From: an archaeon
Lineage (GTDB): Archaea; Nanobdellota; Nanobdellia; Pacearchaeales; GW2011-AR1
Assembly: GCA_009992215.1 (NCBI GenBank)
Contig: JAACWB010000007.1
Coordinates: 1-57,811, forward strand
Direction of reading: 5' to 3'
Length of the DNA stretch: 57,811 bases
A model generated the notes under the pieces. The model did not search any database. It was not told where the DNA came from and saw only the letters and a program-made list of their open reading frames with translations. Of this stretch, positions 4,108 to 35,431 are shown piece by piece. How positions within the stretch are numbered: the first letter of the stretch is position 1; every line of letters begins with the position of its first letter. A program made the position numbers and the translations under genes.

Positions 4108-4752
4108 TTAATTTAGAATTTTTAAAAATTCTTTTGTATTATAATTCAGAACTGGCTCTAATTCTTTTTCTTTACTTGTAAATATTTTTTTTAGAGTTTT
4201 GAAATTTTTTATGAGTTCCCTTGATTTTTTTGGTCCAATGTTTGGAAAACTTTGCAAGACAAATAATTGTCTTTCTTCTTTTGTTAAACATTTTTTTGTT
4301 GGATTGATTTTGTTTTCCTTTTTTTGTTGGTTTGCTAAAACGCTTAGATATTCTGCTGTTTCTTCGCTGTCGTTTGTGAAAATTATTGGAACTTTATGAT
4401 TTATTAAAATTGAAAGAATGAATCCTTTGATTGCATTTTTGTGTATATTTGTTATTTTGTTTATGTTGCCTTCAATTAATAATAAATAATTAGGATATTG
4501 TTTAATTTCTTCAATCTGTTTTTTTAATCTTCCGTTAATCAAAGAATTAGAAAAGTCAACAATTGTTTTTCTCTCGATTATTGTATCTTTTACTAAATAA
4601 TCTCCCACTTTTAATTCTTCAAAATTAAGATAAAAATTTTTCGAGAGTTTTGCCGGAACTAAAGAATTTTTCTCTCGATAATCAATTGTTATTGGGGTTT
4701 TTGACTTTTTAGTTTCAATTAATTTTTCTTTTGAGAATATATCATTAAACAT
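4108..4752 (-). CDS. ERCC4/XPF nuclease with HhH (stand-alone C-terminal half of Hef)
   Basis: IDYRE, GDY and ERKT motifs; HhH FPNIGPK. Confidence 0.92.
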   Translation of the reverse strand: MFNDIFSKEKLIETKKSKTPITIDYREKNSLVPAKLSKNFYLNFEELKVGDYLVKDTIIERKTIVDFSNSLINGRLKKQIEEIKQYPNYLLLIEGNINKITNIHKNAIKGFILSILINHKVPIIFTNDSEETAEYLSVLANQQKKENKINPTKKCLTKEERQLFVLQSFPNIGPKKSRELIKNFKTLKKIFTSKEKELEPVLNYNTKEFLKILN

Positions 4753-4788: not shown

Positions 4789-5358
4789 TTAATATTTGGA
4801 TAAAGAAAGAAGGGTGATTCTTTGTATGGCCTTTCTGAAAACTTCTTCTTGTGTTCTATATGTTGTGTCTAGTATAATATCAAAATTTGTCACATCATAA
4901 CAATTTGTTTTGTATAAATCCCAATATGCATCTTTGTCGCTTTTCATTCTTTGTTCAAGAGTTTCTAAAACTTCTTTTTCATTTTTGTAATTCTTTTCAC
5001 TTTCTCTGTCTGCAGAAAAAATTCTTTTTGCGGCTTCATGTTTGTCTACAGCAAGGAATAATTTAATTGCTTCAGGGGGAGCAAAATAATAAGGTAATCT
5101 CCCTTCAATTATCCATTTTTCATTTTCTTTCATATATCTTGCTTGAAATTCATCAAATTGTGTATCTAAGGTTTTATCATTTAATCTTCTTTCATTCATT
5201 TCATCAATTGTCATGCCTAATTCATTAACTGCAAATTCTCTTCTAAGTGTTCCAATTGAAAGTTTTGGTATCTGATAATATTCTGAAAGTCGTTTAATCA
5301 ATCCATCTTTTCCCGCTCCGGGCAATCCTGACATTGCTATTTTGTATTGTGTTTTCAT
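4789..5358 (-). CDS. cmk: archaeal-type cytidylate kinase-like NMP kinase
   Basis: P-loop SGLPGAGKD, IIEGRL, R..SD...Y..LY and FDIILDTT; atypical GKD. Confidence 0.75.
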   Translation of the reverse strand: MKTQYKIAMSGLPGAGKDGLIKRLSEYYQIPKLSIGTLRREFAVNELGMTIDEMNERRLNDKTLDTQFDEFQARYMKENEKWIIEGRLPYYFAPPEAIKLFLAVDKHEAAKRIFSADRESEKNYKNEKEVLETLEQRMKSDKDAYWDLYKTNCYDVTNFDIILDTTYRTQEEVFRKAIQRITLLSLSKY

Positions 5359-5457
5359 AATGATTAAAATTTTATTTTTTTAATAAAGAAATATGCTCTT
5401 TGAAAATATGTTTTTTAAAACATAGGTTTATTTAAATGACTACTGTATTTTTTTCTC

Positions 5458-6210
5458 ATGAGAAACAAGCATGATGTAAATTTTACGAATAATAATAATA
5501 TTGAAATGGTTTTTGTCGATATGGAAGGAACCATCTTTAAAAAAGTTGTAAAATCAACACATGGAACTGCACCTAGTTCTTGGACATATATAGCAGATTT
5601 GCTTGGTCCTGAAGCAAAGGAGATGGAAGAAGAAACAAAAAAAATTTGGAATGCTGGAGGTTATAAAAGTTATCTTGAATGGATGGATGCAACAATTGAT
5701 ATCCATAGGAAGTTTAATTTGAATAAGAAAATTTTTGATGAGGCAATGAATGTTGAATATTGGAATGGAGTAAAAGAAACTTTTGATTTTTTTAGAGAAA
5801 AAGGTTACAAAACTGCTCTTATTTCTGGGGGATTTAAAGCTCAGGCAGATAAAGCACAAAAAGATTTGAAAATAAATTATGCTTTGGCGGGTTGTGAATA
5901 CTTTTGGGATAAGAAGGGAAACTTATATCATTGGAATTTGAATAATTCTGATTTTGAAGGAAAAATTAATTTTATGAAAGAGCATATAAAAGCAGCTAAA
6001 ATTTCTCCAAATCAATGTGCTTTTATTGGAGATGGACCAAACGATGTTGGTTTAGCAAAAGAAGTCGGATTATCGATTTCATTCAATGGATGTGAGGACT
6101 TAGAAAACGCTGTAAAATATTCCATTAAACAGACAAAAGGAAATGAAGATTTTAGAGAAGTCATAAAATATTTTGATAGCAATGCATATGCTAGATATAT
6201 GAAAAAATAA
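5458..6210 (+). CDS. HAD-superfamily phosphatase (phosphoserine phosphatase-like)
   Basis: Motif I variant DMEGT, ISGGF, GDGPND. Confidence 0.85.
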   Translation: MRNKHDVNFTNNNNIEMVFVDMEGTIFKKVVKSTHGTAPSSWTYIADLLGPEAKEMEEETKKIWNAGGYKSYLEWMDATIDIHRKFNLNKKIFDEAMNVEYWNGVKETFDFFREKGYKTALISGGFKAQADKAQKDLKINYALAGCEYFWDKKGNLYHWNLNNSDFEGKINFMKEHIKAAKISPNQCAFIGDGPNDVGLAKEVGLSISFNGCEDLENAVKYSIKQTKGNEDFREVIKYFDSNAYARYMKK

Positions 6211-6292
6211 TTTTTTGTTGATGGAAGAGTATAATCCAATATATATTTTATATTTAGGAATTATTTATAATTAATTTTCATTTTTTGTTTTC

Positions 6293-7051
6293 ATGAAGAT
6301 AGTGGGAAGAGATGTTGATGAATTATTTTATAATGTTGCAAAAGAATTAATTAATTCTCCCCTGTGTTCCCCTCGAGATTTGAAAACTAAGGAAATTATA
6401 AAAGCTGAATTAGTTGTTCAAGAACCCAAATACTGTGTTGTTAGTAATGGTGCAAGGAATTTATCTTTGAAATATTTGGGAGGAGAACTTGATTGGTATT
6501 TGTCAGGAGACAAATCTATAGATAAAATAAGTGAATATTCTAGTTTTTGGGAGAAAATCGCAGATCTCAATCGGGAAGTTAATTCAAATTATGGTGAGAT
6601 AATTTTCAAACAAAAGTTGGAAAATTTTGATAATAATCAATATAGTTGGGTTTTAGATAAATTGTTTGAAGACAAATATTCTAGGAAGGCATTAATTAAT
6701 TTTAATCAACCAAAACACAAGAGCAATACGAATGATTTTGTTTGCGCTACAAGTGCCCACTATATGATAAGAGATAATAAACTTATTTCAATTGTTGATA
6801 TGAGAAGTAATGATTTAATTTTTGGATTTTCGTATGATTTCCCTTTTTTCTCTTATCTCCATCAAAATCTTTTTCTTGATTTAAAGGAGAAATATGCTGA
6901 TTTAGAATTGGGTGAAGCTTATCATGATGCAAATAGTTTACATGTTTATGAGAGACATTTCAATTTGATTGAAAAAATTGTAAAAGAATACGAGCTAAAT
7001 AATCCTAAATCAAAAACATTAGATGAATTAGGTTTGTTTAAGAAATTATGA
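6293..7051 (+). CDS. thymidylate synthase-fold enzyme, dCMP/CMP hydroxymethylase-like
   Basis: NSNYG, SRKA, catalytic Cys in DFVC, MRSNDLIFGFSYD, SLHVYERH; Asp in place of the dUMP-selecting Asn. Confidence 0.8.
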   Translation: MKIVGRDVDELFYNVAKELINSPLCSPRDLKTKEIIKAELVVQEPKYCVVSNGARNLSLKYLGGELDWYLSGDKSIDKISEYSSFWEKIADLNREVNSNYGEIIFKQKLENFDNNQYSWVLDKLFEDKYSRKALINFNQPKHKSNTNDFVCATSAHYMIRDNKLISIVDMRSNDLIFGFSYDFPFFSYLHQNLFLDLKEKYADLELGEAYHDANSLHVYERHFNLIEKIVKEYELNNPKSKTLDELGLFKKL

Positions 7052-7058
7052 TTAGATC

Positions 7059-8105
7059 TTAATTAAATTCTCTAACTCCATGAGCTGTTGATTCTTTGTA
7101 TCCTGCTGCGGAAATTTCTATGAAGTCAACTTTTCCAATGAAGGATTCCATTTCTTTTGCTCCGATGTAAGTCATTCCTGAAACTAGTCCACCCAAGAAT
7201 TTTTTTACTATTGGTTCAATTGGGCCTTTGTAGGGAACGAGAGTTTTTTCTCCTTCAACTGAAATTATTTCTGTTTTTGTTTTCCCGTCTAGTTGTTGTT
7301 TTTTTAGTGCAGCATCAAAACTAGCCATTCCTCTAAATAATTTGTAATATTTTCCTTTTTGTTTTATTATTTTTCCTGGTGATTCTTTTGTCCCTGCAAA
7401 AACTCCCCCCATCATTACAGTGTTTCCTCCAGCTCCAATAGCTTTTACCATGTCTCCAGGGTTTTTTATTCCAGCGTCAGCACAAATAGGAATTCTTCCT
7501 TGTGTTGCTTCATACGCGTCCATTATTGCAGTGATTTGCGGGACTCCTGCTCCAGTCATAATCCTTGTTGTACACATTGAGCCTGCACCAATTCCAATTT
7601 TAATTGCGTCAGCACCTTTACTCAAAAAATATTCGGCGGCGTCTTTTGTTGCGACATTTCCTGCCATTACATCAACTTTTGGATATTTATTTTTTATGTA
7701 ATCAAGAGTTTTTCCAGCATATTTTGAATGTCCGTGTGCAATGTCTAAAACGATTAGGTTTACGCCTGCTTTTACTAAAGCGTCTAAACGTTCTTCATAA
7801 TCTTTTATTCCTAAAGCCGCTGCAGCAATTAATTTATGTTTTTTTACTAGAGTCACTTGTTTTACTTGGCTTTCAATTGTATTAAATCTATGAATAACTC
7901 CAAGTCCACCAAGTTTTCCTATTGCAATTGCCATTTCTGCTTCACAAGTTGTGTCCATATTTGCAACTAAAATTGGAATATCAATTTCATAATTACGTGT
8001 AACTTTTGTTTTTGTTGAAACTTCCTTACGAGAAACAATTTTGTTATATTTTGGCACAATTAAAACGTCTTCGAATGAATACCCTTTTCCTATAACTCTT
8101 GCCAT
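7059..8105 (-). CDS. guaB: IMP dehydrogenase / GMP reductase family protein (no CBS domains)
   Basis: ANMDT, DIAHGHS, GIGAGSMCTTR, RGMAS, EG motifs. Confidence 0.85.
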   Translation of the reverse strand: MARVIGKGYSFEDVLIVPKYNKIVSRKEVSTKTKVTRNYEIDIPILVANMDTTCEAEMAIAIGKLGGLGVIHRFNTIESQVKQVTLVKKHKLIAAAALGIKDYEERLDALVKAGVNLIVLDIAHGHSKYAGKTLDYIKNKYPKVDVMAGNVATKDAAEYFLSKGADAIKIGIGAGSMCTTRIMTGAGVPQITAIMDAYEATQGRIPICADAGIKNPGDMVKAIGAGGNTVMMGGVFAGTKESPGKIIKQKGKYYKLFRGMASFDAALKKQQLDGKTKTEIISVEGEKTLVPYKGPIEPIVKKFLGGLVSGMTYIGAKEMESFIGKVDFIEISAAGYKESTAHGVREFN

Positions 8106-8155
8106 TTTCCTTTCATGGAAAAAGTTTGAAGTTTTTAATAATTGTTATTTTGATA

Positions 8156-9715
8156 TTAGAATAATTTCTTTTGAATAATCTTTTTGTCATAGAGTGTTCC
8201 TTTTCTTTTTAGTTCATCTTTCACTTTTTCAATTTGTGTTCCCATCTTTTTTTCTCTAGCACGCGAAGCGTAATTTGCAAATTCATCTTTTGTTCCTTTT
8301 GTGATTAACATAATTAATTTTCCTTTGCTTAAACGTGCGGTTCTACCTCTTCTTTGAATTGAACGAATGGCTGAAGAAACTGGTTCATAAAAAATTACGG
8401 AAGAAACTTCTGGAATGTCAAGTCCTTCTTCGGCAATACAAGTTGCAACTAGAACATTTATTTTTTTTTCACGAAATTCATCAATTATTTTCTTTTGTTC
8501 TTTTTGACTAAGTCCAACACCTTCTAATTTTCTTTGTCCCACAAAAACTTTTGAATTTATTCCTCCAAGTTTATTTAGGTTTCTTGAAATTATATTTGCG
8601 GTATCTCTAAATTGTGTAAAAATAATCATTTTCATTTCACTGTCTTCTTTTATTTCGTCACGAACAGCACGAATGATTTCTTCAACTTTTGGATGTTCTT
8701 TTCCTTTTTCTAATAAACTGTAAGTGTAAGAATAAACCAAATTGAATTCTTTTTTGTTTGCAAGTTTTATAACGCCTCTTGATTGTTTTTTTTCTGCTTG
8801 TTCTTGAATACTCCTTAGGTATTTCATGAAACTTTCAAGCGTTTGAGTTTCAAGTAGTTCAATTGCGTGTGATATCTTTATTGCCTGAGCGCATGCAGAC
8901 ATTGCAATATAACTTTCAGGAGAGGCAATATTTTTTGAGAGTTGAAAACCAATTTTTCTTTGGAGTTCAATTAATGCAATTTTTGTGTCTGGACCAAAGA
9001 GAAAATTTCTTCTTCTTAGTTCATCGATATAACTTTCATAAATTTGTTTTAGAATTGCTCTTAATTCAATTAGTTCTTCGGGAAAAGGAATTTCTCTTTT
9101 GTCAAATTCTAATTCTTGTAAATATTCTTTCACATCATCTGAATCTCTTGTTCTAATTTCAATTGATTCAATTTTTAAGTTCATTCCAATTTCCCTTATT
9201 TTTTGTAAATCGCTTCCCGGCGAAGCTGTTAGCCCAATTAAACGTGGATGATTAGCTTCTAAGTAATAACGTTTTGCAACATAAGTATAGTCGTAATTTT
9301 TCACGCAACGATGAGCTTCGTCTTCAATTAAGAGGGAAACTTCTTTTAAGGTGTAGAGTCCTTTTTTCAAATCGTTTGCAACACATTGTGGTGTTGAAAA
9401 AATTATGTTTGCAGTATCCCAAATTTTTTTTCTTTTTTCTGCTTTCACAGTTCCAGTGAAGAGTTCAATTTCAGCCCAAAGTTCTGGGAGTTTTTCTTTA
9501 AATGAAATTAAATGTTGCTCGGCAAGAGGTTTTGTTGGTGCAAGGATTAAAACTTTTTCTTTTGGAAATTTTTTTATCCTTTCAATTACAACCATTAAAG
9601 CGATTAATGTTTTACCAAGTCCAGTTGGAAGAACGACAAGACAATTTTTTTCAATGCAAGTTTTTGCAATTTCTTCTTGGTATTTTCTTGGTTTTATATT
9701 TTGTAATTCTTTCAT
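8156..9715 (-). CDS. hef: Hef/FANCM-like DEAH-box helicase (N-terminal half of Hef)
   Basis: PTGLGKT, DEAH, TASPG, EEGLDIP, QRRGRTAR. Confidence 0.92.
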   Translation of the reverse strand: MKELQNIKPRKYQEEIAKTCIEKNCLVVLPTGLGKTLIALMVVIERIKKFPKEKVLILAPTKPLAEQHLISFKEKLPELWAEIELFTGTVKAEKRKKIWDTANIIFSTPQCVANDLKKGLYTLKEVSLLIEDEAHRCVKNYDYTYVAKRYYLEANHPRLIGLTASPGSDLQKIREIGMNLKIESIEIRTRDSDDVKEYLQELEFDKREIPFPEELIELRAILKQIYESYIDELRRRNFLFGPDTKIALIELQRKIGFQLSKNIASPESYIAMSACAQAIKISHAIELLETQTLESFMKYLRSIQEQAEKKQSRGVIKLANKKEFNLVYSYTYSLLEKGKEHPKVEEIIRAVRDEIKEDSEMKMIIFTQFRDTANIISRNLNKLGGINSKVFVGQRKLEGVGLSQKEQKKIIDEFREKKINVLVATCIAEEGLDIPEVSSVIFYEPVSSAIRSIQRRGRTARLSKGKLIMLITKGTKDEFANYASRAREKKMGTQIEKVKDELKRKGTLYDKKIIQKKLF

Positions 9716-34978: not shown

Positions 34979-35431
34979 TTATTCAATTAATTCTTCAGAG
35001 TTAAACCACAATGAAGTTTCTCTTTCTCCAGATTCAGGAGAGTCTGAAGCGTGAATTACATTTTCAAAGCAATCATTTGTAGGATTAATTCTTCCGAATC
35101 TTCCACGAAGTGTTTCATTTCCTGCTTCGTATGGATTTGTTTTTCCAGCAAGTGTTCTTACTTTTGTTATGGCATCTTCGCCTTTATAGCAAATTGCGAT
35201 AACATTTTCATTTCCATGTAATTCTCCTGTAATGTGTTTTATTAATTTTTCAACAAATGGTTTTCCTTTGTGTTCTTCATAATGAAGTTCCGCCAGTTCT
35301 CTTTTTACATTTACTAATTTTAGCCCAATCATTTTCAAATTAAGTCTTGCAAGTTCTTGCATAATTTGGCCGTATAAATTTTTAATCATTGCATCAGGTT
35401 TAATTAAAACTAAAACTTTTTCTTGTGTCAT
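34979..35431 (-). CDS. ndk: nucleoside-diphosphate kinase
   Basis: IKPDA, HYEEHKGKPF, NVIHASDS. Confidence 0.96.
   Translation of the reverse strand: MTQEKVLVLIKPDAMIKNLYGQIMQELARLNLKMIGLKLVNVKRELAELHYEEHKGKPFVEKLIKHITGELHGNENVIAICYKGEDAITKVRTLAGKTNPYEAGNETLRGRFGRINPTNDCFENVIHASDSPESGERETSLWFNSEELIE

Follow-up and report, generated by a model that had tools for sequence, protein, structure and literature searches.

What does a gene with the fold of thymidylate synthase (TS) do in the chromosome of a genome-reduced archaeon, and does it work as a unit with the two genes beside it? The question is raised by a 57,811-nucleotide stretch (hereafter the window) of contig JAACWB010000007.1 in assembly GCA_009992215.1, from an archaeon of the Nanobdellota (order Pacearchaeales), in which a cytidylate-kinase (cmk) homolog, a gene for a HAD-family phosphatase and a TS-like gene lie side by side. 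An earlier note on this DNA, made from the sequence alone, had proposed that the three form a module for modifying cytosine nucleotides. The gene order and strands that it described agree with the open reading frames (ORFs): the kinase gene is divergent from the HAD gene, which the TS-like gene follows. On the evidence of sequence comparison and structural modeling, we put at about 0.72 the probability that the TS-like gene is a horizontally acquired accessory dCMP hydroxymethylase of the T4 gp42 type, placed in a slot that separates the halves of a split hef gene.

The TS-like protein matched the TS family profile PF00303 with 72.6 bits (cut-off, 24.3). In a sequence search of the PDB, T4 dCMP hydroxymethylase was the best match (E = 2.8e-27, 99 bits), followed by MilA (E = 1e-13), and the best ThyA reached E = 1e-9. 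The AlphaFold (AF2) model of the protein (42 sequences) had a mean pLDDT of 95.7. When it was compared with the PDB by Foldseek, ranks 1 to 10 were all MilA or T4 dCMP hydroxymethylase (E ~1e-18), with MilA on top by a small margin, and ThyA appeared from rank 12 (1e-14). The protein contains MRSNDLIFGFSYD, the final Asp of which, D182, aligned with the Asp of T4 MRSNDVVFGFRND (HMMER alignment with 1b49, E = 2.8e-27). The Asp that the earlier note had placed at the position of E. coli N177 is thus present, and together with the nearest structures and the fold it bears out the note's view of a cytosine-nucleotide enzyme of the T4 gp42/MilA kind, not a ThyA.

Conservation was examined in a family alignment of the query and 120 database homologs (121 rows). 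The N177 equivalent was Asp in 119 of these rows and Asn in two, so that the Asp is a trait of the family and not a chance substitution. The catalytic Cys (C146 in E. coli, C151 here) and the equivalents of Arg166, Ser167, Asp169, and Gly173 were present in all 121 rows. The position of L143 is occupied by D148 (in the motif DFVC), which was invariant in alignments A1 and A3, and the D169 site is D174. Invariant in alignment A1 were also S172 at the S167 site and R131 at the R126' site (S169 and R123' in CH), as well as H217 and Y219 at the H207 and Y209 sites, the pair that binds the 3'-hydroxyl. In the RR pair, the second Arg is replaced by Lys (by Gln in most of the clade). The frame is full length, and every invariant catalytic or binding residue of the family is intact.

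According to one study, Asp at N177 confers a preference for dCMP, a hydroxymethyl product instead of a methyl one is associated with an acidic residue replacing L143, and Asn replacing D169 marks the flavin-dependent 5-hydroxy-dCMP synthases (PMC13326640). The ribose preference of MilA rests, by another report, on Ala176 and Lys133', where TS and T4 dCMP hydroxymethylase have Ser and Arg (PMC5175136). These marker rules are correlations drawn from few characterized enzymes. Since every marker checked fits, they point to the conversion of dCMP to 5-hydroxymethyl-dCMP and away from a methylase, a 5-hydroxy-dCMP synthase or a CMP hydroxymethylase. The TS-like gene probably encodes a folate-dependent dCMP 5-hydroxymethyltransferase of the T4 gp42 type. 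In the reaction proposed for it, Cys151 would attack C6 of dCMP, Asp182 would read the N3/N4 face of the cytosine, and the methylene of 5,10-methylene-tetrahydrofolate (CH2-THF) would be added at C5. The product would be hydroxymethylated because of Asp148 at the L143 position, which is proposed to admit water and so to yield 5-hydroxymethyl-dCMP, not 5-methyl-dCMP.

We consider it very unlikely that the enzyme has another chemistry or substrate, whether that of an Xp12-type dCMP methylase, an RB69 gp48-type flavin-dependent 5-hydroxy-dCMP synthase or a MilA/BcmA-type CMP hydroxymethylase. Asp at N177 is common to all these enzymes, the rank of MilA in the Foldseek comparison fits a CMP enzyme, and the substrate rules come from few cases. 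The Xp12-type dCMP methylase is a TS homolog that acts on dCMP and has Asp at N177; unlike the protein studied here, with its Asp148, such methylases carry a bulky hydrophobic residue as their marker at the L143 position. The 5-hydroxy-dCMP synthases RB69 gp48 and DLP3 gp80 are likewise dCMP-acting TS homologs with Asp at N177 (PMC13326640), but their D169N marker is absent here, where Asp174 stands. MilA and BcmA (PDB 5B6D and 5JNH) resemble the window protein in being cellular TS homologs with Asp at both N177 and L143. They differ in that Ala176 and Lys133' of MilA correspond to Ser172 and Arg131 here and in the weaker sequence match given above, and neither a MilB-like N-glycosidase nor antibiotic-pathway genes were seen near the TS-like gene in the window.

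The closest known system is T4 gp42 itself (EC 2.1.2.8; PDB 1B49, 1B5D, and 6A9A), which is the best sequence match among solved structures, has the same fold and is 33.5% identical (tblastn). The two share the catalytic Cys, Asp at L143, D169, and N177, Ser167, Arg126' and the His/Tyr pair. Unlike gp42, the window gene stands alone in an archaeal chromosome with no adjoining glycosyltransferase, and its protein has the Lys in the RR pair. In the T4-like cytosine-replacement pathway, gp42 acts with gp1, gp56, and glucosyltransferases; the gp1-type kinase and dCTP-clearing features were not found here, so the window gene is not part of such a pathway. Hydroxymethylases of dCMP are textbook phage enzymes. 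The cellular examples that could be documented here use CMP and belong to antibiotic pathways (PMC5175136). Judged by titles and abstracts, a literature search for such a gene in DPANN archaea or in archaeal cells brought up nothing relevant. With the TS-like gene, the established family of dCMP hydroxymethylases gains a member in an unusual setting.

The earlier note had asked for other thymidylate and cytidylate genes in the genome and had suggested a noncanonical route to dTMP in an organism expected to lack most of its nucleotide biosynthesis. A canonical ThyA was found on contig C42 (431.5 bits), with the motifs ALPPC and PFN, that is, of the Leu143/Asn177 type. It shares the superfamily, the fold, the catalytic Cys, Arg166, Asp169, His207, and Tyr209 with the TS-like protein but differs from it at positions 143 and 177, and the two paralogs aligned only at E = 4.2e-6 with 21% identity. 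On contig C30, an operon-like row (L193, 568-5572) encodes NrdD, NrdG, a P-loop kinase (AAA_18), a fusion of a P-loop kinase with a dCMP deaminase (353 amino acids) and a dUTPase; the fusion is unusual. The assembly, which is 79.9% complete, yielded no ThyX, PF02223-type tmk, class I or II ribonucleotide reductase, SHMT, FolD, or DHFR, and the cmk is single. With canonical ThyA, dCMP deaminase, dUTPase, and NrdD present, the TS-like gene is not needed for dTMP. The small genome with its few biosynthetic genes, and the missing ThyX, tmk, DHFR, and SHMT, would suit such a route, but a hydroxymethyl product would require a further reduction step to dTMP, which nothing here suggests, and we regard the idea as extremely improbable. 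The canonical thyA itself lies within about 19 same-strand ORFs of at least 100 amino acids (L192, 6303-17644), among which only thyA has a Pfam match above the cut-off; one further ORF has a weak OMP-barrel match below it, and the run may be an integrated element.

Distribution of the TS-like gene was analyzed in the source genome (G000) and 60 relatives, 22 of them of the same genus. A protein query matched two of the 61 genomes, namely the source genome itself and G021, in which the match was a weak one to canonical ThyA; the gene was not found in the 60 relatives. PF00303 proteins occurred in 24 of the 61 genomes; apart from the window protein, they were canonical ThyA or divergent archaeal-type TS, and the eight divergent ones that were read had Asn at the specificity site. 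A family profile run across a sample of 401 genomes of the phylum matched 41 at E <= 1e-15, and only three of these scored above the level of the ThyA of the source genome (77 bits); the sample takes in one unpublished genome, G303, with a ThyA-level match only. The three were the window gene (349 bits), a chromosomal copy in G250 between an OB-fold gene and MCM (177.5 bits), and a copy in G376 (100.7 bits) inside a phage-like block with DnaG, PolA, UDG, ThyX, dCMP deaminase, Dam, and a bacterial RecA. A scan of public genome contigs with the single protein returned one locus, L006, in a record titled Candidatus Pacearchaeota MAG, with no useful families among its neighbors. With part of a TonB-dependent receptor at one of its ends and a thermosome at the opposite one, the L006 contig (3-1067) may be chimeric or misbinned.

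The wider family is overwhelmingly viral. A relative is encoded in at least 562 IMG/VR stretches (562 of 597 among the matches listed), and 1,026 of 50,697 phage records matched, with 41% identity for the best cultured phage. The neighbors of relatives could be read at four loci: L110 (55% identity; primase-polymerase/helicase, dUTPase_2, the N-domain of a dATP/dGTP diphosphohydrolase, and a methyltransferase), L111 (49%; C5 DNA methylase, tmk-like gene, dCMP deaminase, and dUTPase), L115 (46%; amidoligase, GATase, GGACT, and terminase) and L008 (43%; PolA, dCMP deaminase, UDG, gp32, and RecA). Phylogeny was analyzed with a FastTree tree of 182 rows, from which duplicates and loci with a match shorter than 170 residues were dropped and to which T4 gp42 and the ThyA of the source genome were added. 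In it, the window protein, L110 and seven database proteins without genomic context form a nine-row clade (support 95). This clade is nested in a 26-row clade (support 96), itself nested in an 83-row set (support 97) that includes T4 gp42 and 16 IMG/VR rows. The nearest homologs, those of its clade, are 52 to 62% identical. Horizontal acquisition of the TS-like gene is well supported, and a viral or mobile-element donor appears likely from these comparisons. Composition is uninformative on foreign origin because the gene matches the adjoining genes in GC and GC3 and the nearest homolog loci are just as AT-rich.

The source genome, which its relatives place among the DPANN archaea, comprises 889 kb in 56 contigs with a GC content of ~29%, and the window is its chromosomal contig C19, which also encodes RadA, SRP54, FtsY, GINS, eIF2-alpha, and a nucleoside diphosphate kinase (NDK). 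Contigs from other public runs spanned the junctions of the TS-like gene with no differences (X8, 5759-7042; X4, 5609-6404; X5, 6090-7524). The junctions with the HAD gene and with the gene on the other side, a GMP-reductase (GMPR)-like gene, are therefore bridged, and the locus is no assembly artifact. The TS-like sequence recurs identically in several public runs, which possibly sample one population. One variant, P0001 (a 2.3-kb contig), has D9Y and G207C at two clade-invariant positions, an error or a polymorphism. A joint from 6256 to 8786 in three runs was disregarded, as its shorter side has only 21 letters in AT-rich sequence. Coordinates of the features are collected in Table 1.

Table 1. 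Genes and intergenic region of the locus, and the NDK gene, by position in the window
Feature	Position	Strand	Details
Hef nuclease half (ERCC4), border of the slot	4108-4752	-	NF010337 positions 562-760, 176.8 bits
Kinase, cytidylate-kinase (cmk) homolog	4789-5358	-	189 aa; P-loop GKDG
HAD-IB, phosphoserine-phosphatase-like hydrolase	5458-6210	+	250 aa; motif I DMEGT
HAD-to-TS intergenic region	6211-6292	+	T6 run after the HAD stop, then AT-rich TATA-like stretch
TS-fold paralog, predicted dCMP 5-hydroxymethyltransferase (T4 gp42 type)	6293-7051	+	252 aa
GMPR-like gene (CBS-less IMPDH/GMP-reductase family)	7059-8105	-	PF00478 371.6 bits; convergent with the TS-like gene
Hef helicase half, other border of the slot	8156-9715	-	NF010337 positions 14-513, 550.7 bits
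Nucleoside diphosphate kinase (NDK)	34979-35431	-	PF00334 132.8 bits

Spelled out along the lines of the earlier note, a module would have the TS-like enzyme make 5-(hydroxy)methyl-dCMP, the GKD kinase specialized, like T4 gp1, for phosphorylating this product, and the HAD enzyme with its DxE motif recycle or dephosphorylate it, all as one unit that hypermodifies DNA or poisons nucleotides. In its favor, the genes adjoin one another, and the HAD and TS-like genes lie 82 bp apart on the same strand, with a T6 run after the HAD stop that speaks against a common unit. The P-loop of the kinase does read GLPGAGKDG, with GKDG in place of the canonical GK[ST] or GKGT. Its resemblance to phage dNMP kinases holds in part: T4 gp1 reads SGKDT, but only the P-loop aligns (BLASTP, E = 0.48), the Thr that follows GKD in gp1 is missing, and there is no likeness to gp1 outside the P-loop. 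A weak match (E = 1.7e-5), confined to residues 1-80, also linked the kinase to phrog_139, a family of phage dNMP kinases. Among 11 orthologs read, DG after the P-loop Lys occurs only in the source genome; GT follows the Lys in the three closest (G016, G007, and G013), and T, S or N in eight others. G250 is the one further archaeon of the phylum found to have an Asp-type TS in its chromosome, and its kinase has GKGT.

Comparison with named families placed the kinase nearest to the archaeal (d)CMP kinases (TIGR02173), which it matched with 65.9 bits, under the cut-off of 102.1; this was still its best-scoring named family, and it is the best TIGR02173 match of the source genome and its sole cmk-like gene. 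Homologs occur in 26 of 41 genomes (the source genome and 40 relatives), beside the Hef nuclease gene wherever the locus was inspected. The kinase had no match in the PDB at E <= 1e-3 and none among the 50,697 phage records. In several relatives, it lies within open frames of 375 to 437 amino acids, which may be fusions. In PADLOC, it matched viperin-kinase fusions in their kinase part (71.9 bits, higher than its score on the archaeal cmk model), with no viperin domain here; we read the match as shared cmk ancestry and not as a sign of defense. For the TS-like, HAD, and GMPR-like proteins, PADLOC returned no match, and no evidence was found for the antiviral nucleotide poisoning that the earlier note had entertained. 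Elsewhere in the order, a member of a different family has an archaeal-type TS of the Asn type, a 213-amino-acid gene and a cmk homolog in tandem (L205, G049 C6, 2940-5039); proximity of TS and cmk therefore arises with true thymidylate synthases too.

The unusual DxE motif I that the earlier note saw in the HAD protein is likewise present, as DMEGT, in which the second acidic residue is Glu and not Asp. As it is invariant in the four orthologs aligned, it marks the HAD family and has no connection with the TS-like gene. The motifs DMEGT, ISGG, EGK, and GDGPND are conserved. The protein matched PF00702 (47.7 bits) and TIGR01488, the HAD-IB family (49.4 bits, over the cut-off of 45), and stayed under the cut-off for SerB (TIGR00338; 61.2 bits against 144.15) and for the archaeal phosphoserine-phosphatase-like family. 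Its best PDB match was the phosphoserine phosphatase of M. jannaschii (E = 6.9e-10), the Atlas clusters closest to it come from Nanobdellota and Woesearchaeota, and it had no match among the 50,697 phage records. Homologs were found in seven of the 41 genomes, with close orthologs in three: G001 and G020 (74-76% identity) and G040 (56%), where the gene lies between SRP54 and FtsY. In all three, the HAD protein with DMEGT stands beside other genes and without a TS-like gene.

Co-occurrence of the three genes was then examined in the neighborhoods of TS homologs (tblastn), at 163 loci and at 79 from a second scan, the two sets sharing some contigs. No HAD homolog and no kinase homolog was found near the TS-like homologs at any of the 163 or the 79 loci. 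With the kinase a single-copy positional ortholog and the HAD gene present elsewhere without the TS-like gene, the three genes do not behave as one module; the adjacency and the GKD motif notwithstanding, we consider such a unit distinctly unlikely. The only neighbor that recurred with TS-like homologs was the GMPR-like gene, at six of the 163 and one of the 79 loci (L085, L174, L187, L188, L094, L146, and L277). Four of these seven loci were annotated, all of them on large phage-like contigs, and there the GMPR-like gene lies within a cluster for nucleotide metabolism, followed by a dCMP deaminase in three of the four and with a thymidine kinase as well in two. The GMPR-like gene matched phrog_9582 over its full length (330.6 bits). 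However, six of the 22 further members of the genus have it without a TS-like gene. As a speculation, the GMPR-like enzyme could shift salvaged G toward A in an AT-rich genome.

The setting of the locus offers another explanation for the adjacency. Hef is encoded here as separate helicase and nuclease genes with two to six unrelated genes between them (the window, L026, L027, and L028), an arrangement kept in both relatives that have both halves on the locus (G016 and G020). Slot gene orders were read in three annotated relatives. Between the Hef nuclease and helicase genes of the source genome lie cmk, HAD, TS-like, and GMPR-like genes. G020 has, from the Hef nuclease, cmk (29-30% identity), HAD (74-76%), and an AAA_28 P-loop kinase up to the Hef helicase, and G001 has the same genes, with the same identities, to the AAA_28 kinase, where the contig ends. 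In G016, the Hef helicase is followed by three unknown genes, a dCMP-deaminase-family gene, a GMPR-like gene (81% identity), cmk (59%), and the Hef nuclease; the deaminase (L028, 4461-4985, minus strand) matched APOBEC_N (29.7 bits), SNAD4, and NAD1 besides dCMP_cyt_deam_1. The slot thus always has cmk together with varying genes of nucleotide metabolism (HAD, AAA_28 kinase, dCMP-deaminase family, GMPR-like, and TS-like).

Because cmk is kept at one position between the hef halves, it is a fixed resident of the slot, and the HAD gene is an occasional one. Most likely, then, the cmk-like kinase and the HAD gene are resident genes of the slot and not dedicated partners of the TS-like gene; adjacency in a conserved slot for nucleotide metabolism can mimic a dedicated operon. 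The TS-like gene stands where G020 and G001 carry the AAA_28 kinase, and a search of the source genome for AAA_28 found none, in a run that did not include a positive control. The spacer 3' of the HAD gene aligned with the HAD-to-AAA_28 spacers of G020 and G001 up to the downstream start codons, with a three-way mean column identity of 81% including the 3' end of the HAD gene; given how AT-rich the sequence is, this evidence is weak. The TS-like gene was probably acquired horizontally from a mostly viral family, and it sits in the split-hef slot at the position of the AAA_28 kinase.

Several points weigh against an active, virus-derived hydroxymethylase. The rule for L143 is a published correlation and not a proven determinant. 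The source of CH2-THF is unexplained for both TS paralogs, as SHMT, FolD, and DHFR were not found, a problem that canonical ThyA shares. Neither MazG (PF03819) nor a dUTPase_2-type NTP pyrophosphatase (PF08761), the two chosen proxies for dCTP clearance (T4 gp56 was not used as a query), was found in the 79.9%-complete genome, and a gp1-like kinase is not evident. Other cellular copies look degraded: in that of G250, Gly replaces the phosphate-binding R166, and that of L006 is split into two frames. The 26-row clade holds no IMG/VR sequence, and a clade-specific IMG/VR scan gave nothing closer than 47% identity, so that a viral origin is inferred from the wider family and from the mobile-element-like locus L110.

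Such degraded copies, the missing pathway partners and the sporadic distribution (not found in the 60 relatives searched, three of 401 genomes in the phylum) would also be expected of a neutral or decaying relic, a captured virus-derived gene with no maintained role in the cell. The window copy does not look like one: its frame is full length with all invariant residues in place, its model is confident, its composition matches the host, and its sequence recurs identically between runs, although perhaps from one population. We hold a relic to be rather unlikely.

If the dCMP hydroxymethylase is active, its product would most likely be phosphorylated by promiscuous resident kinases, with NDK making the triphosphate, and some of it would then enter DNA as 5-hydroxymethylcytosine (5hmC). 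Dephosphorylation by the HAD enzyme or deamination by the dCMP deaminase are alternatives and equally putative. As no pyrophosphatase of the kinds sought was found, dCTP would persist, and cytosine is not expected to be replaced completely. In E. coli, a related synthase alone is reported to have given a trace of modified base in DNA and far more with a cognate kinase (PMC13326640). By that result, a small pool of hydroxymethyl-dC nucleotides with partial incorporation, depending on the promiscuity of the kinases and NDK, would be the likeliest outcome here.

A bolder possibility is that the archaeon feeds 5-hydroxymethyl-dCTP from a captured viral enzyme into its own replication and that its only cytidylate kinase changed its P-loop from GKGT to GKDG, converging on the phage GKD, so as to accept hydroxymethyl-dCMP. 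We judge this unlikely. If it were true, a cellular organism would place 5hmC in its chromosome by way of the nucleotide pool, perhaps as protection against the nucleases of its host or its viruses. As it stands, a complete and apparently functional dCMP-type copy, judged by its residues, in the chromosome of a genome-reduced archaeon and beside genes of nucleotide salvage would be an unusual case of a host retaining a viral DNA-modification enzyme. If the enzyme is active, 5hmC nucleotides, and perhaps 5hmC DNA, are predicted in a cellular lineage.

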